Virus record (IMG/VR): IMGVR_UViG_3300022660_001620
Reading direction: 5' to 3' (one strand)
Source: an uncultured virus (IMG/VR IMGVR_UViG_3300022660_001620)
Lineage: Duplodnaviria; Heunggongvirae; Uroviricota; Caudoviricetes
DNA length: 64,000 nucleotides
A program made the position numbers and the translations under genes. Under the pieces are notes generated by a model that did not search any database, was not told the origin of the DNA, and saw nothing but the letters and a program-made list of their open reading frames with translations. Of the stretch, positions 18,689 to 54,960 are shown piece by piece; the stretch's first letter is position 1; the number at the start of each line of letters is the position of its first letter.

Positions 18689-19762
18689 TTATGCCGTCAG
18701 TCCGATTTCCTGTAAACACTGCTTAAACATGATCTCGCTGCTCATGTAGCCGAGTATCTTGCGGGGGTAATTATTTATCCACTGTTCCGTCGCGGCGATC
18801 TCCGCCTTGCTCACCTTTGCAAAGTCGGTTCCCTTTGGATGCTTGCGCCGAATCATAATATTCTGGTTCTCGTTGCTGCCCCGCTCCCATGAGGAATACG
18901 GATGGCAGAAGTAAATCTTTGTCCGGGGAATCGTCTTATTGATAACAGAACGCTCCAGCTCCTCCGCCGCCGAAAACTCAGAGCCGTTGTCTACTGTGAT
19001 GCTCCTGAACACCTTTCGGAAGATCGGAGCACCCAGCTTTCTTTCCAGCGCGTCGATGGCCTTGACGACGGTTTCCGCCTTTCGATTTGGGATTAGCACG
19101 ATGATCTCCCGCCGGGTTTTTCTCTCGGTCAGCACCAGCAGGGCCTTTGTGGAGGTATTCGCGCCGCTGTAAACCGTGTCCATTTCCCAGTGACCAAAAA
19201 TTTCCCGGTTATCGACCTCTACCGGGCGGCGCTCGATGCTCTCACCAGCCGGGGCGCGGGCAGGCTCCTTAGTTTCCACCCGCTTATAACTGGCCTTGTG
19301 CTTTCCCCTCCGGGGCAAATCAACCTGAGTAAGCCGCAGGAACACACCCTTTTTGATATAGCTGTACACCGTTGCCACAGACACGGAAGTTTTGAACACT
19401 TTCCCCTCCATTTGTGCATAACCCAAAACGGCGGCAGGGCTGCAATCATTGGCAATGATCGTTTCCTCAATGTAGGTCGCAAGCTCATGGTCATTACCGA
19501 TTTTCAGATCAGGCCCTTTCTCCCGCAGATTGGCTTGATACCGTTCCTCTGCAATGTCCGGGCTGTATGCCGTGGTCATTTCCCATGTGTCGCCGTTCAG
19601 CCGCTCATAGGCTCCGCGCTTCAATTCACGGTAAACCGTGGAAACATGAACGCGCAGCTTCCCGGCGATCTCGCCGGGCTTTAATCCCATCCGCAGCCAC
19701 TTTTCGATTCGCAGTCTGTCCGACTTCGTTAGGTGTTTGAATGTCCGCTTTGTGCTTTGCAC
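18689..19762 (-). CDS. IS30-family DDE transposase
   Basis: HTH VHVSTVYRELKRG; GHWEMDTV, ITVDNGSEF, SWERGSNEN, INNYPRKILGY; probable GTG start at 19762 after GAGGGGAGG. Confidence 0.9.
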   Translation of the reverse strand: MQSTKRTFKHLTKSDRLRIEKWLRMGLKPGEIAGKLRVHVSTVYRELKRGAYERLNGDTWEMTTAYSPDIAEERYQANLREKGPDLKIGNDHELATYIEETIIANDCSPAAVLGYAQMEGKVFKTSVSVATVYSYIKKGVFLRLTQVDLPRRGKHKASYKRVETKEPARAPAGESIERRPVEVDNREIFGHWEMDTVYSGANTSTKALLVLTERKTRREIIVLIPNRKAETVVKAIDALERKLGAPIFRKVFRSITVDNGSEFSAAEELERSVINKTIPRTKIYFCHPYSSWERGSNENQNIMIRRKHPKGTDFAKVSKAEIAATEQWINNYPRKILGYMSSEIMFKQCLQEIGLTA

Positions 19763-19902
19763 AGTGGAAACCTCCCCTCTGGTATCTGCGCAGGCGGTGT
19801 CGGTTTTTCCGTTCCGTTCTGCTTGTCGCATTTTGTCTTATTTACGCCCCTATCATAATTCACAATTTCGTTTTTCGCAACTTATTTATTGCAAATGAAC
19901 GC

Positions 19903-22476: not shown

Positions 22477-22812
22477 TTATTCCTCCTGCCCCATGGGGCT
22501 GATCATGTTGTCCGGCCACTCGTCGCCGCCGATCACTGCGCGGTATGCCTTGTCGGCTTCCGCAATTTCATCGCGCCCGGTTTCGGTGTCGCCCAGCTCC
22601 GCAAGGCGCATGGACAAAACCTTGATCGCCCGCGCCTGGATTTCCGTCACCGATTCCAGTTCCTGAATGATTCGCAAATGGCTCATGCTTTCCATCCTTT
22701 CTGCTGCTTCCCGCAACAGATCGTTGATCTCTCCGATCTGGCGCAAAAATTCCCCGTCCGGCAACGCCTCGTCTACGCCGTAGAACAGGGACAGATAGTG
22801 CTTGTTCTGCAT
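22477..22812 (-). CDS. Hypothetical acidic helical protein downstream of the RT
   Basis: GGAAAGGAGG RBS before MQNKHY; possible second start at MSHLRII. Confidence 0.55.
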   Translation of the reverse strand: MQNKHYLSLFYGVDEALPDGEFLRQIGEINDLLREAAERMESMSHLRIIQELESVTEIQARAIKVLSMRLAELGDTETGRDEIAEADKAYRAVIGGDEWPDNMISPMGQEE

Positions 22813-23852
22813 CTGTACCTCCTTTCCCACCGGGACACATACGCACGGGCCGCCCCCTTGCTTATCGTCGGTTTGATGTGCTGACAATAATACCGCCCGA
22901 AATTGATGCGTTTGCCCCATCCAAGCCGCGAGAGGAACCGCCTTGCCCTGCCGATGTTCAGCCCCAGCGCAGCGATTCGCCGCACCGTCCGCGTCAGCCG
23001 GTAAAGCAGCTTCTCCCGTAGCAGGGTATATCCCCGGAAATACCGATACCCCACAAAGTCAAGCGGCCTGCTGTGGACGCGCCACAACTGCCAGTTTCCC
23101 TTGATCGTCAGGCCGTAGCCCTCTGCGGTCATAAACTCCGCCAGGGCTTGCATTGCCCGGCGCAGCTTCCGCTTGTTCGGCCCCATCAGCACCATGTCGT
23201 CCACATAGCGCACATAGTACGGCACTTTCAGTTTTTCCTTGATGTAGTGGTCGATCTCCTGCAAATAGAAGTTGGATAACCACTGCGATGTGTAATAGCC
23301 AATGGGCAGGCCCGGCCCGCCGTTGTCGATGATGGCACCCAGCAGCTCCAGCACATCCCTGTCCTTGATCTTCCGGGCCAGCAGTTCCTTTAGCTTGTCG
23401 TGCCGGACAGACGGGAAAAATTTCCGCACATCCAGTTTCAGCACATACCGGGTGTTCTTCTTCCGTAGAGCCTTTTCCACATACCACTTTGCCGCCTTGC
23501 CTCCCCGTCCGGGTACGCTTCCGCAGCTATAACGGTACATCCCTTTGGATAACACAGGCTCTAATACCTGTATCACCGCCCAATGGACGATCTGATCTGG
23601 ATAAAAGCGCGGCACCGTGATCTCCCGCTCCTTGCCGCAGGAAGTATCGCGGATTATCCTTGTGCGGTTTTCGCCCGGCACAAATCGGTGTTCCCGCAAC
23701 ATAGCGCTGATCTGCGCCGTGTACCGCTCCGGGTCTGCCAGAATGTGCCGGACATACCCTCTGTTGTGCTTGTGCTGGCAGGCATGGAAGATGGCCCGCC
23801 TTACATTGTCCGGGTCACAGATTTTTTCGTACAAATAACCTACGCGTTTCAT
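22773..23852 (-). CDS. DGR reverse transcriptase
   Basis: MKRVGYLYEKI; KEREI, PDQIVHWA, LKLDVRKFF, GLPIGYYTSQWLSNFYL, YVRYVDD, LDFVGY; adjacent TR/VR pair. Confidence 0.95.
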   Translation of the reverse strand: MKRVGYLYEKICDPDNVRRAIFHACQHKHNRGYVRHILADPERYTAQISAMLREHRFVPGENRTRIIRDTSCGKEREITVPRFYPDQIVHWAVIQVLEPVLSKGMYRYSCGSVPGRGGKAAKWYVEKALRKKNTRYVLKLDVRKFFPSVRHDKLKELLARKIKDRDVLELLGAIIDNGGPGLPIGYYTSQWLSNFYLQEIDHYIKEKLKVPYYVRYVDDMVLMGPNKRKLRRAMQALAEFMTAEGYGLTIKGNWQLWRVHSRPLDFVGYRYFRGYTLLREKLLYRLTRTVRRIAALGLNIGRARRFLSRLGWGKRINFGRYYCQHIKPTISKGAARAYVSRWERRYRCRTSTICPCSTA

Positions 23853-24160
23853 GGTAAGAGTTCTCCCTGTCTTTGTTGTCTCACGGGTGTTCGAGCGCCC
23901 GCCTACTGACCCGTGCTCTTTACGACCGTTTTTTGCCAAGGGGCAAGGACATATATCTCCTGGAGGGGCCGTTCCCTCCAATTTACCAGGGACAAAAAAG
24001 AGAGGCGCGCGCCGATGTTGGAGTTCGAGTTCGACGCATCGTTGTTGCCGTTGAGGTACCACAAACCCGCCTTGCCCGCGTTGTTCCAGTTGCCGCCGCA
24101 GTTGAGCACAACGCCACGCAGGCCGATCAGCGCCGCAAGAGCGGAGATATATGCCCTGTA
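23853..24160 (-). ncRNA. Putative DGR template RNA (5' flank, TR, spacer)
   Basis: TR bracketed by a 14-bp long-range stem (24143-24156 with 23947-23960); non-coding spacer up to the RT start. Confidence 0.6.
23997..24115 (-). repeat. DGR template repeat (TR), 119 nt
   Basis: AAC-rich copy of the target 3' end; differs from VR almost only at adenines. Confidence 0.95.
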
Positions 24161-47755: not shown

Positions 47756-48496
47756 CTATTCGCCGTCCTCCGGGTCTGGCACATCCACAACGCCGGTGGC
47801 CCTCATGCGCAGAATGGCAAGCCGTTCTTTCTCCAGCTCCATCCTCCGCTCGCTTTCCTCCAGCGCCCGCAGGCTGTCCGCGATCTTGGCAATGCGGCCC
47901 TGCACTTTGTATAGGGCCTCCTGCAATTTCAGCACCCGGCTAAAGGCGCTGTCCTTGCTGTACATTCCCATGTTCTGCACGGCACCGTCTTTCTTGTCCT
48001 TGCCCCGCCCGCTCGGAACGCGCATATCAAGCAGACTGCTGATATACAGCGTATCTTCCGGCTGGCTCTCATACTCGGCGATCTTCGCCATGATCTTGTG
48101 CTCCCGGAATTTGAGCAGCTGCATTTCATGTTCCAACGCCGCCTTGCTTCCCAGCGGCGTTTGGGCGATGAAATCCCGCTCCTGTTCGGTGAGCATATCA
48201 AAAAAGACGGCGCTGTAAGCTCCGTCCTTTTCCGCGTTCTTGTTTCCTACCGGCGCTCCGGGGTGGCTCCCCGCAGCGTTCTTTTTTCCGGCGCTGTTCC
48301 TGTTGCCCGGCTGGCCGCCGCGCTTTTTCTTTGGCAGGGCCTCGTCCCACTTGTCCGCCGCTTTCCAGTTCCGCATCGTCTGATAGGACACGCCCAACTC
48401 CTGCGCCAGCTCCCGCAGGCTTACTTTTTCGCCCCGTGCTTTCCGGGCGACATATTCAGCCTTGGCGGTGTCGCGCTTCTCGCTCCGCTTCGGCAT
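47756..48496 (-). CDS. Second terminase-small-subunit-related HTH protein
   Basis: LRELAQELGVSYQTMRNWK..DKW; GGQPGNRN, GAPVGNKNAEK.G. Confidence 0.75.
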   Translation of the reverse strand: MPKRSEKRDTAKAEYVARKARGEKVSLRELAQELGVSYQTMRNWKAADKWDEALPKKKRGGQPGNRNSAGKKNAAGSHPGAPVGNKNAEKDGAYSAVFFDMLTEQERDFIAQTPLGSKAALEHEMQLLKFREHKIMAKIAEYESQPEDTLYISSLLDMRVPSGRGKDKKDGAVQNMGMYSKDSAFSRVLKLQEALYKVQGRIAKIADSLRALEESERRMELEKERLAILRMRATGVVDVPDPEDGE

Positions 48497-48686
48497 TTCG
48501 CACCTCCTGAATAGGCGGCACACCCCGTCCGGCCTACATCATTACCCCGCGCAGGAACGCAGGGCTTCGGCCAAAACAGGGTGCGCCAATAGCAAAGCCC
48601 GCAGCGTTTCCGCCACGGGCTTTGATTCCACAATATTGTTTTACCACAGAAAACCTGTCAAAGTTGCTAACTCTCAAAAATTATTT

Positions 48687-51412: not shown

Positions 51413-51471
51413 TTGACAACGGCACGCAACAGTGCTATGTTGTAGCCACAGCAACAAGCACGCAACAGTGC
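51413..51471 (+). promoter_or_regulatory. Early promoter with two identical 14-bp operators
   Basis: TTGACA-17-TATGTT with extended TG; GCACGCAACAGTGC at 51422-51435 and 51458-51471. Confidence 0.75.
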
Positions 51472-51500: not shown

Positions 51501-51914
51501 ATGACAAACAACGAAATCATTTTTGAAACCGTCCGCGCCGCCTTTACTCCCGCCCAGCTCGCCGATCTGGTCAACGCGATCTATCCCGCCGACAAGATCA
51601 CCGCCCGCCGGGCCAGCGTCAAGATCGCCGTTGCAGAGGACAGCAACGACACCCCGGAAGATATTTTTAACGCCATGCTGGCCGCTGAAACTTTCCACAC
51701 TTTCTCGGAGTGGAAGCGCATGGGGTACAGCGTGAAAAAGGGCGAACACGCCGCGCTTGTCTGCAATCTCTGGAAGTACACCGACAAGCCCGGCAAAGCC
51801 GCCAGGGAAGCCGCCGCCGCTGCCGGGCAGGATGCCCCCGAAAGCGACCCGCATTTTTACATGGCGAAAGCGCACCTTTTCAGCGCCTTACAGGTGCAAA
51901 AAATCAAGGCTTGA
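51501..51914 (+). CDS. ArdC-like ssDNA-binding domain protein
   Basis: FHTFSEWKRMGYSVKKGEHA....LWKY...LFSALQV. Confidence 0.75.
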   Translation: MTNNEIIFETVRAAFTPAQLADLVNAIYPADKITARRASVKIAVAEDSNDTPEDIFNAMLAAETFHTFSEWKRMGYSVKKGEHAALVCNLWKYTDKPGKAAREAAAAAGQDAPESDPHFYMAKAHLFSALQVQKIKA

Positions 51915-51923
51915 CCCCGGCGA

Positions 51924-51970
51924 CGCGGACACTTTAGCAGGGCTGCACCGCACAAAGCAACCCAGCCCCA
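51924..51970. repeat. Intergenic structured element, copy 1
   Basis: CGCGG ACACTTT AGCA GGGCTGC A CCGC ACAAA GCAACCC AGCCCCA. Confidence 0.8.
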
Positions 51971-52011
51971 GCCCAGCAGGGCCAACAACAGAATTTTTTG
52001 GAGGTTATCAC

Positions 52012-52938
52012 ATGAAAAAGTTTACCGTCCATTACACCAAGGACACCGCCAAGGCCATCAAGGCCGCCGAGCGCCTGATCTGCACCACCACCGAGGACGG
52101 CGCGATCTATCTTTGTTCCGGCTACTGGATGTACAAAATGGACGCGCTGGAATATGCCGCCGTTGCCCAGCCCGTCACCCACTGCGACCCCGGCAACTGG
52201 ACGATTGACAGCAACGGCAAGCGGGACGGCAACGACGGCAAAAACCTGTTGCGGATTTTCGCGGATGCCGTAAAGGCCAACGAAAGCAAGCCCGCCCTGG
52301 AGCGTTGCCCCCTCTCCCTGGAGCGTCCGAACCTCTCCGCGTATCTGTATCACAGCCCGGACGGCTTCGCCGCTGCTTATGACTGCCGATACATTGCCCC
52401 GATCAGCAAGGGCCAGCAGCTCCGCGCCCCCGGCGCAACCTCTCCCGCCGTTTTCTACGACAGCGAAAAAGAGCCGTTTGCGCTGGTTATGCCCATCCGC
52501 CTGGATGCCAAGGACATCCGCGCCATTACGGCATATTTCACCGAACCCGCCGCACAGAACGCCAGCGACAGCGCCGCCCAGGTTGACCGGCTCCGGGACA
52601 AGCTGACCCAGGCACAGGACGAAAACGCCCAGCAGGCCGCCGAGCTGGAAGCGCTGCGGGCCAAGCTGGCCGAGCTGGAAGCCCAGCAGGCACCCGCACA
52701 GGAAGCCGCCGACGACAAGCCCCAGCAGGCACCCGCCCAGGACGCAAAGACCGCCGCCGAGCTGATCGCTTCCCGCTTCGCAGGCTTTGCAGGCGTGACC
52801 GCCACCATCAAGGGCGCACAGACCGCCGCGCCGGTGGTATGGCTGGCAGGCGATACCGAGAAACACGCCGACGCGATCAAGGCAGCAGGCGCAAAATGGA
52901 GCAACAAAAAATCTGCCTTTTATGTCCGCGTCGCCTGA
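52012..52938 (+). CDS. Hypothetical early protein (coiled coil + C-terminal WLAGDT..H...IK..G.KW domain)
   Basis: GGAGG RBS; open frame with phage-like codon usage. Confidence 0.7.
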   Translation: MKKFTVHYTKDTAKAIKAAERLICTTTEDGAIYLCSGYWMYKMDALEYAAVAQPVTHCDPGNWTIDSNGKRDGNDGKNLLRIFADAVKANESKPALERCPLSLERPNLSAYLYHSPDGFAAAYDCRYIAPISKGQQLRAPGATSPAVFYDSEKEPFALVMPIRLDAKDIRAITAYFTEPAAQNASDSAAQVDRLRDKLTQAQDENAQQAAELEALRAKLAELEAQQAPAQEAADDKPQQAPAQDAKTAAELIASRFAGFAGVTATIKGAQTAAPVVWLAGDTEKHADAIKAAGAKWSNKKSAFYVRVA

Positions 52939-52954
52939 CCCGGACACCCGGACA

Positions 52955-53001
52955 CCCGGACACCTTCGCGGGCCGCACCGGCACAAAGCGACCCGACCCC
53001 A
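52955..53001. repeat. Intergenic structured element, copy 2 (5' octamer CCCGGACA triplicated from 52939)
   Basis: CCCGG ACACCTT CG CGGGCCGC A CCGG CACAAA GCGACCCG ACCCCA. Confidence 0.85.
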
Positions 53002-53040
53002 GGCCACCGGCCACAAAATCACAAAATGGAGGTACACAAA

Positions 53041-53523
53041 ATGTCCAGCTTCATCATGTCGCCCCAGTCCCACGCGACCCTTGCAAACGCCCTGGAATAT
53101 ATCTTGAACAGCGGCTTTAACCGCTTCGGCTTTGACGCTCCCGACACCCTGCACAAAGCCCTGAATGACTGCCGTGATCGTTACGGCTTCTACTGTAACG
53201 GCCTGATCTACAACCGGCTTTACAGCCTGAACGCCCGCGCCGTAGATACCCGATACAAACACGCGGACGCTTCCCAGGTGCCAGATATGCCGGAGGTGCC
53301 GCCGCTGATCGAGGAGCGCCAGCGCGTCAACCACCACGAAAAGCTGCTGCCCTGGCATTACAAATTCTGCAAGATGCTTGATTGCCAGATTTACCAATCC
53401 AGTGAGGACGCGACCCGAAACGACCCGCTTTTGCTTGCCCTGATCGACTTCTCCCGCGTCTACAAATCGTTTCTTGTGACCAACACCGACGAATACGACG
53501 CCGCCCCATGGGGCTGCATCTGA
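53041..53523 (+). CDS. Hypothetical early protein
   Basis: MSSFIMS...LY.LN..AV..RY...LDCQIYQSSE; GGAGG RBS. Confidence 0.7.
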   Translation: MSSFIMSPQSHATLANALEYILNSGFNRFGFDAPDTLHKALNDCRDRYGFYCNGLIYNRLYSLNARAVDTRYKHADASQVPDMPEVPPLIEERQRVNHHEKLLPWHYKFCKMLDCQIYQSSEDATRNDPLLLALIDFSRVYKSFLVTNTDEYDAAPWGCI

Positions 53524-53532
53524 GCCACAAGA

Positions 53533-53578
53533 CCCGGAAACCTTGGCGGGCCGCACCGGCGAAAGCGACCCGACCCCA
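53533..53578. repeat. Intergenic structured element, copy 3
   Basis: CCCGG AAACCTT GG CGGGCCGC A CCGG CGAAA GCGACCCG ACCCCA. Confidence 0.85.
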
Positions 53579-53614
53579 GCCAAACGGCACAAAACAAAAC
53601 AGGAGGAAAAGACC

Positions 53615-54649
53615 ATGTACGAACAATACAGCATGATCGACCCGGCCCCGGAACAAACCACCCCGGAAGCGGAACAGACAGCCCCGGAAGCGGAGCAGGC
53701 CCAGCCCGAAACGGAACAGACCGCACCGGCGACCCGCTATTATGAGATCAGCGAAAGCACTGCCCGCCGGGCGCACGACATGAACTCCATGCGGGACTAT
53801 CCCACAAACCGTGCAACCGACGAATACCGCGCCGCCGTTGACGCTGCCGCCGCCCTGGTAGCATCCAAAAAGGCCAGCGTCAGCCCCTACTACCACGACA
53901 AGCTGGACGGCCTGCTTGATCGCTACGCCCGCCGCCTTGCCGAGTGGACAAACGCATACAACCGCAACCGGGCGAGCTGCCCCAGCATCCTTGTTTCCGG
54001 CGGCTCCAATTTCCCGGTCAACAAGAAGAACAAGCAGAACGCCCGCGAGGACAGCTTGTGGCAAGAGTACAAAACCATCGAGGCCATCTTGGAAAAGATC
54101 AAGAGCGTCGGCACCGGCCCCGTTGACCTGACCGACCCCCACGCCCGCGAAATCCTCACCGATCAGCTCAACGCCTACCAAAAGGCCCTGGATGATGCAA
54201 AGGCCGCAAACGCCTATTACCGCAAGCACAAAACGCTGGACGGCTGCCCCGGCATCGGCCCCAGGGAACGCGAATGGCTGACCCGGCCCGGCGTGTTCGC
54301 AAAGGGCGGCGGCTCCCCGCTGGAGCTGTACGGCTGCCCGTTCCCGCCTTACGAACTGCAAAGCCGCCGGGGATATATCAAGCGCGTTGCTGACCGTCTG
54401 GCCGAGCTGGACAGACTGGAAGCGGCAAAGGCCAACCCCGCCGAAAGCACAAAATTTGACGGCGGCGAGATCGTCCGCAACGCCGTGGAAAACCGGCTGC
54501 AAATCCTCTTTGACGACAAGCCCGACGAGGACACCCGCGCCGCGCTGAAAGCAAACGGCTTCCGCTGGTCGCCCCGCAACCAGGCATGGCAGCGCCAGCT
54601 TACTGACAACGCCGAAAGCGCCGCTCGCCGGGCGCTGGGCCTGAACTGA
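53615..54649 (+). CDS. Polyvalent-protein-type early protein (DUF3560-like)
   Basis: CPSILVSGGSNFP; NRLQILFDDKPDEDTR..LK.NGFRWSP...AWQRQL. Confidence 0.65.
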   Translation: MYEQYSMIDPAPEQTTPEAEQTAPEAEQAQPETEQTAPATRYYEISESTARRAHDMNSMRDYPTNRATDEYRAAVDAAAALVASKKASVSPYYHDKLDGLLDRYARRLAEWTNAYNRNRASCPSILVSGGSNFPVNKKNKQNAREDSLWQEYKTIEAILEKIKSVGTGPVDLTDPHAREILTDQLNAYQKALDDAKAANAYYRKHKTLDGCPGIGPREREWLTRPGVFAKGGGSPLELYGCPFPPYELQSRRGYIKRVADRLAELDRLEAAKANPAESTKFDGGEIVRNAVENRLQILFDDKPDEDTRAALKANGFRWSPRNQAWQRQLTDNAESAARRALGLN

Positions 54650-54680
54650 CAACCAATTTCGTGGCCCCACGAAAATGATA

Positions 54681-54728
54681 CCCGGACACCTTGGAGCCGT
54701 CGCACCGGCATAAAGCGACGGCACCCCA
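54681..54728. repeat. Intergenic structured element, copy 4
   Basis: CCCGG ACACCTT GGA GCCGTCGC A CCGG CATAAA GCGACGGC ACCCCA. Confidence 0.85.
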
Positions 54729-54771
54729 TACACAACCCGCCGCCCAGGGTAAAGGGCAGGGAGGACGCAAA

Positions 54772-54960
54772 ATGACCATCCGCGAGTATGCAAAAAGCGT
54801 CGGCTTTGAGATCGTCGGCAAGCTGACCCGCAAAGTTGAACCCTACGGCATAGACCGAAAGCAGCGTGTCTATATCGACGAGGCCGGGAACAAATATTAC
54901 CCCGACAACGGCGATGCCTGCGGTTTCTGCATCGTGACCGTTGACGGCAAGATCATCTGA
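54772..54960 (+). CDS. Small hypothetical protein
   Basis: MTIREYAKSVGFEIVGKL...; GGAGG RBS. Confidence 0.65.
   Translation: MTIREYAKSVGFEIVGKLTRKVEPYGIDRKQRVYIDEAGNKYYPDNGDACGFCIVTVDGKII

Follow-up and report, generated by a model that had tools for sequence, protein, structure and literature searches.

Which kind of element recurs between consecutive genes of a prophage operon, and what could it do there? This question is raised by a stretch of DNA of 64,000 nucleotides (nt) from an uncultured member of the Caudoviricetes (IMG/VR record IMGVR_UViG_3300022660_001620; the whole stretch is called the window). The window is a prophage, and it carries four elements of ~47 nt, all on the plus strand, one in each of four consecutive intergenic gaps (genes 1 to 5). 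We identified these elements as copies of RAGATH-5, an RNA motif that is already known and has been in Rfam for years.

Identification of Four RAGATH-5 Copies

The cores of the elements, counted from the first pseudoknot base to the A of a CCA trinucleotide, span positions 51925–51970, 52956–53001, 53534–53578, and 54682–54728. The preceding stop codons end at 51914, 52938, 53523, and 54649, and each core is followed by GGAGG and an ATG (at 52012, 53041, 53615, and 54772, respectively). A preliminary description of the locus had placed the four copies between a stop codon and the next ribosome-binding site (RBS), and both this placement and the plus-strand coordinates were confirmed.

A scan with cmscan against Rfam release 15 assigned the repeats to RAGATH-5 (RF02685; gathering score 50 bits), with alignments that span model positions 1–53 in all four copies. 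Copy 1 (51925–51982), copy 2 (52956–53012), and copy 3 (53534–53588) exceeded the gathering score with 60.7, 53.1, and 56.7 bits. Copy 4 (54682–54761), which has a divergent GCCG-type stem, stayed below it (41.7 bits, E-value 9.2e-5), yet was aligned end to end. The traits of the family, i.e., a hairpin with an ACCG...AAA loop and the flanks CGGA.AC on the 5' side and CCCCA on the 3' side, are present in all four. The window copies share sequence and hairpin with the family over the 53 model positions, and we consider their membership in RAGATH-5 practically certain. The preliminary description had called the element unrecognised and had itself named a match to a described Rfam family as the outcome that refutes novelty; with three copies above the gathering score, the novelty claim is refuted. 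RAGATH-5 was reportedly first described by Weinberg et al. in 2015 (Nat Chem Biol 11:606); none of the papers that we searched mentions "RAGATH-5" or "RF02685".

A degenerate pattern derived from the copies matched four times in the window and not once in 100 dinucleotide-preserving shuffles. Scores of 67.6, 57, 63.6, and 58.1 bits for copies 1 to 4 were obtained with our own covariance model R1; these hits are expected by construction because the four copies sat in the model seed. The next best hit reached 15.1 bits (E-value 0.048), and the scan of the window with this model revealed no fifth copy. Neither twister-sister nor hammerhead nor any other ribozyme was found in the window itself by the Rfam scan.

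Two short repeats adjoin the elements. Directly after the stop codon of gene 2, Tandem Repeats Finder detected a perfect tandem repeat on the plus strand (ACCCGGAC, 3.4 units, 52938–52964, 100% matches, score 54), which provides three alternative 5' pseudoknot strands for copy 2; in loci L045 and L061, this word is partially duplicated ahead of RAGATH-5 copies. Between the stop codon of gene 4 and copy 4 lies a perfect 8-bp palindrome (TTTCGTGG-CC-CCACGAAA, 54657–54674), listed on the minus strand by the terminator scan, and a one-base variant of it stands ahead of the orthologous copy in locus L004.

RAGATH-5 Arrays in Related Phages

Scanning IMG/VR with a pattern derived from the window returned at least 151 stretches, and a stricter pattern matched 57 stretches in genomes or metagenome-assembled genomes (MAGs). 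The labels of these 57 included Faecalibacterium, Gemmiger, Subdoligranulum, Oscillibacter, Flavonifractor, Dysosmobacter, Acutalibacter, and Allofournierella, together with unclassified Oscillospiraceae, Ruminococcaceae, Clostridiales, Eubacteriales, and Clostridia and one unclassified bacterium. Two MAGs, one with the label Muribaculaceae and the other with the label Desulfovibrio, were taken for binning errors. The operon is of an Oscillospiraceae/Faecalibacterium prophage type.

A covariance model built from 80 copies gave 230 matches in loci L001–L100, many of them duplicates from overlapping loci. Two non-redundant model runs on 70 sources yielded 102 and 105 matches, which were reduced to 118 distinct sequences from the window and from gut-phage contigs. 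These were aligned with MAFFT (alignment A4; loci L101–L151 and L152–L208 were left out), and the counts per alignment position given below refer to these 118 copies. Arrays are the rule, with seven copies in 5 kb of locus L020. The cultured Faecalibacterium phage FP_Toutatis carries a homologous operon with six copies by Rfam and seven by the covariance model within 10 kb, each just past an annotated coding sequence of the operon that also holds its primase gene. Faecalibacterium prausnitzii and FP_Toutatis thus constitute a cultured host–phage pair with seven copies.

Pseudoknot Fold and Covariation

The alignment bears out the covarying H-type pseudoknot of the preliminary description: a strand outside the hairpin pairs with the hairpin loop, with compensatory changes, and both pairings covary. 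Stem 1 (S1) comprises 3–4 base pairs (bp) between a 5' NCGG and the CCGN of the hairpin loop, and stem 2 (S2) comprises up to 11 layers. In the window, S1 is formed by GCGG and CCGC in copy 1 and by CCGG and CCGG in copies 2–4, and the main stems are GGGCTGC/GCAACCC, CGGGCCGC/GCGACCCG, and GCCGTCGC/GCGACGGC, all as had been described. At the outer S1 pair 1/27, GC (28) and CG (27) are nearly balanced among the 85 cells with letters, besides five other standard pairs and 25 unpaired cells. Pair 2/26 is CG in 110 copies, GC in three, UA in one, and C.A in four, and the two inner G-C pairs of the pseudoknot are invariant. Within S2, covariation was evident for pairs 13/42 (GC 81, AU 24, CG 3) and 20/35 (CG 80, UA 33). 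The stem, 8–11 bp with a conserved 10-nt loop, is longer than initially drawn, as pair 13/42 was added and pair 12/43 is Watson–Crick in 58/117 copies. Loop 1 measures 7–8 nt, and loop 3 ends with an invariant AAA. Little or no variation was seen at about 20 of the roughly 50 positions, which are grouped at the helix junction (G3 G4 A5, A7 C8, G21 C22 A23 C24 C25, the AAA, and G33 C34). The folding energies of the window copies did not go beyond those of shuffled sequences (z-scores of −0.1 to −1.6 on the plus strand and 0.0 to −1.1 on the minus strand), and the support for the fold is therefore comparative and not thermodynamic.

Probable Base Triples Between Loop 1 and Stem 2

The top two column pairs of the alignment by mutual information, 9/35 and 10/36, connect loop 1 with the 3' arm of S2. 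In loop 1, the conserved AC is followed by two pyrimidines at positions 9 and 10, and in the 3' arm, a GC is followed by two purines at positions 35 and 36. Position 9 is combined with position 35 as C/G in 81, U/A in 36, and U/G in one copy, and position 10 with position 36 as U/A in 65, C/G in 52, and otherwise in one copy. In total, 235/236 cells (99.6%) fit this match, a value reached by 0/500 shuffles, and registers in which loop 1 was slid against the 3' arm were matched to at most 66%. Copies 1 and 2 of the window illustrate two of the types, with TT over AA and CT over GA, respectively. Since 9 goes with 35 and 10 with 36, the two strands run parallel, a register that an ordinary helix cannot give. 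A pyrimidine third strand is known to lie in the major groove along the purine strand of a helix, forming U·A-U and C+·G-C triples. The strand order of RAGATH-5 fits such an arrangement, with loop 1 leaving the S1/S2 junction and following the 3' arm. The base at position 36 fits position 10 in 117/118 copies and its nominal Watson–Crick partner, position 19, in just 50/117 (19/36 cells: C.A 64, C-G 30, U.G 19, U-A 1). When orthologous gaps of different phages are compared, the dinucleotide type changes and the match is kept; after homologues of gene 4, for instance, CC/GG was found 11 times, TT/AA twice, TC/AG twice, and CT/GA once.

From this pattern of covariation, RAGATH-5 probably forms a triple-helix pseudoknot in which loop 1 would occupy the major groove of S2 and contribute two or more pyrimidine·purine triples of the U·A or C+·G type. 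Several points weigh against it. The pattern used to fetch relatives fixes CGG and CCG, and the sample leans towards close relatives and towards RAGATH-5-bearing gaps; the pseudoknot variants in it come solely from neighbouring copies found by the covariance model. In a tree built without the triple columns, ~14 changes were counted per column, and supported branches hold 3/3 and 2/2 independent pairs. The branches are weakly supported because the sequences are too short, and the phylogeny-aware test is underpowered. An antiparallel pairing between loop 1 and the 3' arm was considered as well and rejected, since only 42% and 30% of the cells are paired when the register is slid, and the crossed register gives C.A in 26 and U.G in 26 of 71.

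The Functional Strand

The preliminary description had left the active strand uncertain, and this doubt was fair. Helix cells hold A.C in 218 cases versus G.U in 27, and the canonical share of helix cells would be 94.4% for the minus strand versus 83.2% for the plus strand; both values weigh against a function as sense RNA. A and C are abundant on the coding strand here (AT skew +0.26, GC skew −0.15), which accounts for part, not all, of the A.C excess.

Gene context and triples favour the plus strand. An open reading frame (ORF) on the same strand ends at most 15 nt upstream in 110/118 copies in sense orientation and in 4/118 in antisense orientation, and an RBS, a start codon, and an ORF follow downstream in 110/118 versus 10/118. 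The base of the third strand tracks the contacted purine on the plus strand only; read on the minus strand, the second triple would turn into A·G.U (64 copies) or G·A.C (19 copies). Given the orientation relative to genes, the co-orientation with ribozymes (8/8 loci with both), and the triple pattern, the plus strand is favoured despite the A.C excess, and RAGATH-5 very probably acts as a sense-strand RNA.

The A.C cells are an observation in their own right. As had been noted before, copies 1–3 of the window have C opposite A and copy 4 has T-A. Across the alignment, A.C is preferred inside the helices, including pairs 19/36, 12/43, and 15/40, and U-A is nearly avoided at 19/36, where copy 4 holds the sole U-A among 117 scored copies. 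Wobble pairs with a protonated A (A+.C) are a possible cause of the excess, as is a site for specific recognition. With such protonation, C19.A36 would be isosteric with the U19.G36 wobble, and together with C+ triples this would make the fold sensitive to pH.

The CCA Trinucleotide and the Second Hairpin

Directly 3' of S2, the 118 copies carry a CCA whose final C and A are invariant and whose first C is present in at least 90%. The preceding base is a C in at least 90% and is paired with position 12 in 58/117 copies. In copy 1, the CCA lies at 51968–51970. A GC hairpin (hairpin 2) follows in 107/117 copies, beginning 0–4 nt later in 101/107, and ten copies lack it; its mean folding energy is −9.7 kcal/mol versus −4.8 kcal/mol for shuffles. 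By folding, hairpin 2 was placed at 51971–51982 in copy 1 (GCCC-AGCA-GGGC), at 53002–53012 in copy 2 (GGCC-ACC-GGCC), and at 53579–53588 in copy 3 (GCC-AAAC-GGC). The RBS lies 23–33 nt beyond the CCA and outside the fold. The absence of a U tract noted in the preliminary description holds for all four copies of the window.

In copy 4, a downstream hairpin (~54736–54761) extends to the RBS. This CCCGCCGCCCAGGGTAAAGGGCAG-type hairpin (54736–54761) overlaps the RBS of the small gene after gene 4 and is conserved in loci L004, L029, L039, and L045. A related hairpin without RAGATH-5 stands after 5/21 homologues of gene 4.

In the Rfam structure line printed by cmscan, neither the pseudoknot nor the triples, the CCA, or hairpin 2 are included. 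The triple covariation and the CCA–hairpin anatomy are additions of the present analysis, although they may already stand in the 2015 paper by Weinberg et al. or its supplement. The combination of triple helix and CCA provides a concrete lead on how RAGATH-5 works.

Equivalence with Self-Cleaving Ribozymes

RAGATH-5 follows closely upon the upstream gene. The knot starts a median of 7 nt past the stop codon (5–10 nt in 89/116 copies, 0–17 nt in most), with a frame spread (mod 3) of 44/36/36, and the upstream stop codons (n = 116) are TGA in 72, TAA in 44, and TAG in no case. The next start codon lies a median of 52 nt past the CCA (30–68 nt for the 0–90th percentile).

In 20 related loci, some of them overlapping, the Rfam scan detected 81 RAGATH-5 copies, 11 twister-sister ribozymes, and one type II hammerhead ribozyme. 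The name RAGATH itself, as expanded in PMC11061315, refers to a location near genes that are associated with twister and hammerhead ribozymes. This setting was found in the related operons: as for the family as a whole, the copies lie in phage-like DNA of gut Firmicutes, in the vicinity of twister-sister and hammerhead ribozymes. Twister-sister (RF02681) and type II hammerhead (RF02276) use the same strand and the same gaps, start near the stop codon (0–4 nt past it in 8/10 cases), and precede an A-rich spacer and RBS of the same kind. Their folds are unrelated to that of RAGATH-5, and self-cleavage, proven for both of these classes, is not reported for RAGATH-5. RAGATH-5 further differs from them by the usual extra GC hairpin and the larger distance to the next start codon (median 52 nt versus 20–36 nt).

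To compare individual gaps, non-identical homologues of the window genes were considered. The gap after gene 1 was occupied by RAGATH-5 in 8/8 cases and that after gene 3 in 12/12. After homologues of gene 4, RAGATH-5 was present in 16/21 cases and a different hairpin in 5/21. The gap after gene 2 homologues (n = 7) held RAGATH-5 in three cases, twister-sister in three, and hammerhead in one. These proportions are biased towards RAGATH-5 because the sample was fished with RAGATH-5, which leaves the replacement by ribozymes after gene 2 unaffected. RAGATH-5 is interchangeable with self-cleaving ribozymes at cistron boundaries, and this gap-for-gap replacement suggests that RAGATH-5 and the ribozymes do one job. 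This bears on the question of why orphan RAGATH motifs and self-cleaving ribozymes are found crowded together in certain phage operons.

A Possible Role in mRNA Punctuation

On our analysis, a role in processing or punctuation of the polycistronic messenger RNA (mRNA) has about an even chance. RAGATH-5 would mark the cistron boundaries, as twister-sister and hammerhead would, and the transcript would be cut at the copies into units with structured ends. This chance is shared by RNase P, by self-cleavage, and, for the remainder, by another RNase. The preliminary description had listed a processing site, an exonuclease block, an antiterminator, and a ribozyme; the structured cis-RNA stands, the processing site fits best, and the other three options fit less well. 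According to a review (PMC6765202), twister and hammerhead ribozymes share a gene neighbourhood, from which it is argued that cleavage is needed there irrespective of the motif; the processing of polycistronic transcripts is noted as suggested, not shown. Among RAGATH motifs, PMC11061315 (2024) names only hammerhead variants, hepatitis delta virus (HDV) variants, and twister-sister as shown to be ribozymes, the others being of unknown function. Self-cleavage is thus not reported for RAGATH-5, and for this reason a host enzyme is favoured. Cutting would then be performed by a host nuclease, with RNase P as the leading candidate.

In vitro, bacterial RNase P RNA, with or without the protein, cuts an H-type pseudoknot that carries a 3' RCCA (R, purine), and a type B RNase P RNA also cuts it (Kosek et al. 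2025, PMC12710915). The authors place the cut in loop 1, describe it as CCA-dependent, and call the targeting of pseudoknots by RNase P in vivo an open question. In RAGATH-5, the stacked S1 and S2 (~13–14 layers) together with the CCA could mimic the acceptor arm of a tRNA, with loop 1 in place of the "leader". Host RNase P would then cut loop 1 at each cistron boundary, a proposal that we put forward tentatively and regard as possible and far from probable. Several findings speak against it. A C, and not the purine of RCCA, precedes the CCA and is often paired; the element has no T-loop; and loop 1 is tied up in the putative triples. tRNA genes were found in the equivalent gaps of none of 60 loci and nowhere in the window. 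In addition, Rfam types the RAGATH-5 family as "Gene; ribozyme", which speaks against a host enzyme. If the proposal were true, RAGATH-5 would be the first natural mRNA pseudoknot of a bacterium or phage at which RNase P cuts in vivo. The proposal would also account for the sharing of gaps between ribozymes and a motif not reported to self-cleave: the phage would either use a ribozyme of its own or borrow the tRNA-processing ribozyme of the host.

The entry as "Gene; ribozyme" is also in favour of another reading, in which RAGATH-5 would itself be a ribozyme and cut the mRNA directly, provided that conditions or flanks yet untried are supplied. Gaps, strand, and spacing are the same as those of proven ribozymes, ~20 of roughly 50 positions are near-invariant at the helix junction, and the protonation-dependent features (C+·G triples, A.C) hint at a dependence on pH. 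We nevertheless consider self-cleavage unlikely, as RAGATH-5 stands outside the RAGATH motifs named as ribozymes in PMC11061315. The family name, moreover, was never raised to a ribozyme class name. The strand order, which we take to be that of the HDV P1/P2 knot minus P3 and P4, presumably fits no known self-cleaving class. A stability or translation element that is not cleaved would account for other features of the anatomy. Compact triple-helix pseudoknots are mechanically stable in other systems, a GC hairpin follows in most copies with no U tract behind it, and at 5–10 nt past the stop codon, as in 89/116 copies, the knot would be within reach of the terminating ribosome. Knot and hairpin could block exonucleases, i.e., either the 3'-to-5' decay of the upstream cistron or the 5'-to-3' progress of RNase J into the downstream one, or they could tune termination and re-initiation. 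Such a function appears doubtful, if conceivable, because the gaps are interchangeable with those of ribozymes whose sole known activity is cleavage. For the translational variant, the lack of a frame preference and the spread of the spacing (0–17 nt in most copies) argue against recoding, and the distance to the next start codon is loose.

An operator bound by a phage or host RNA-binding protein that co-regulates every cistron would agree with the arrays of four to seven copies and with the strong conservation of the single-stranded AAA and CCA. Ribozymes substitute for RAGATH-5, though, and no protein family was found to travel with the element, as the flanking genes vary and the gaps follow different genes; an operator is thus distinctly unlikely. 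The least probable reading places the function on the minus strand or in single-stranded DNA (ssDNA), as a priming or single-strand-origin signal or as a recombination site for the shuffling of gene cassettes, the latter being the alternative of the preliminary description. It draws on the higher canonical share of the minus strand, where the 218 A.C cells become G.U, on a neighbourhood that codes for a rolling-circle-type initiator, a primase-family protein, and an ssDNA-binding-type domain, and on gap occupants that vary among related phages. The cassette interpretation finds no support, the orientation being locked to the genes (110 versus 4 of 118) and to the ribozymes (8/8 loci). The minus-strand combinations A·G.U and G·A.C fit no triplex rule, loop 3 with its many A residues would be suited to an RNA triple in the minor groove, and traits of integron attC sites were not observed.

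Comparison with Known Systems

Triple-helix pseudoknots of the H-type are known from the SAM-II and preQ1-II riboswitches and from telomerase RNA. As predicted for RAGATH-5, the pyrimidines of their loop 1 lie in the major groove of stem 2, with covariation of the U·A-U/C+·G-C type, and stem 1 is accompanied by a loop 3 rich in A. The Rfam scan revealed no similarity of the window copies to SAM-II, preQ1-II, or the telomerase pseudoknot, nor any match to riboswitch families at E-values up to 10. Unlike SAM-II and preQ1-II, RAGATH-5 occurs in many copies per operon, leaves the RBS outside the knot, and has no expression platform, and by position it is therefore not a riboswitch. A riboswitch was rejected also because each of the 4 to 7 copies per operon stands after a stop codon and no terminator is present. 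An intrinsic terminator was rejected as well, since neither the stem nor hairpin 2 leads into a run of T and the terminator scan gave no plus-strand site in the four gaps, and so was a frameshift or readthrough pseudoknot, given the variable stop-to-knot distance and the mixed frames.

In phage T7, the gaps between early genes contain RNase III sites, which are long irregular duplexes. As with RAGATH-5, one structured element stands in each gap of an early polycistronic transcript; RAGATH-5, in contrast, is a compact pseudoknot with a duplex too short for RNase III. Integron attC sites likewise are imperfect inverted repeats between successive genes and raise the same strand question. RAGATH-5 differs from them in that no integrase is adjacent and in that an 8–11 bp stem with a 10-nt loop takes the place of the bulged attC duplex. 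The tRNA-like structure of turnip yellow mosaic virus and a biotin-aptamer pseudoknot with added RCCA (the latter from PMC12710915) are pseudoknotted mimics of the tRNA acceptor arm that RNase P cuts, and they share with RAGATH-5 the strand order a-L1-b-a'-L3-b' followed by a single-stranded NCCA. RAGATH-5 has ~13–14 stacked layers versus 12 in the tRNA arm, and its outermost conserved pair is G-C or A-U. Unlike these tRNA mimics, it is internal to an mRNA and not 3'-terminal, has a C before the CCA, and possesses a long loop 1 that would be bonded in triples.

Genes and Other Features of the Window

The copies belong to a plus-strand gene block (51.5–57.2 kb) downstream of a promoter-like site at 51413–51441 (TTGACA, 17 nt, TG-TATGTT; plus strand). 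This site was found by a consensus scan with 10/12 hexamer matches and lies ~60 nt 5' of gene 1; judged by its match to the consensus alone, it is the probable start of the operon. Gene 1 (51501–51914, plus strand, 137 amino acids (aa)) encodes an ArdC-N-like protein, i.e., one with an ssDNA-binding, anti-restriction-type N-terminal domain (Pfam PF08401, 22.8 bits at a cutoff of 22.6; phrog_34979, E-value 3.6e-31). Gene 2 (52012–52938, plus strand, 308 aa) is of unknown function and has a coiled-coil middle part, and gene 3 (53041–53523, plus strand, 160 aa; phrog_35696, E-value 9e-23) is likewise of unknown function. Gene 4 (53615–54649, plus strand, 344 aa; phrog_19458, E-value 1.7e-120) belongs to a family annotated as primase, as is its homologue in FP_Toutatis. 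Gene 5 (54772–54960, plus strand, 62 aa), an ORF with a GGAGG RBS, is the first gene past the last copy; Pfam and PHROG-type family searches of the window proteins gave no match for it. The plus-strand block further holds several small ORFs, and the neighbourhood also codes for a replication initiator of the rolling-circle type.

The structural genes are located on the minus strand, from ~48.5 kb down to ~20 kb, and encode the small and large terminase, a lambda-type portal, a ClpP-like protease, major capsid protein E, the tail tube, the tape measure, baseplate J, and a tail lysozyme. A DUF3800-VIII RNA motif (RF03075; 48519–48585, minus strand; 68.3 bits at a gathering score of 40.2) stands directly 5' of the small-terminase ORF (47759–48523, minus strand) at the head of this operon. 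Among the tail genes, a reverse-transcriptase ORF with an RVT_1 domain (22776–24062, minus strand) adjoins a Listeria–Bacteroides-repeat protein, and an RT-18 RNA motif (RF03021; 23869–23945, minus strand; 59.6 bits) lies in or beside its 5' part; the locus looks like a diversity-generating retroelement. Further to the left, an insertion-sequence-type transposase (HTH_38 and rve; 18692–19831, minus strand) is located at a sharp boundary in GC content, which is 33–37% at 8–18 kb versus 55–61% over the prophage. In view of this drop, the left part of the window (about 6–20 kb) is of other origin.

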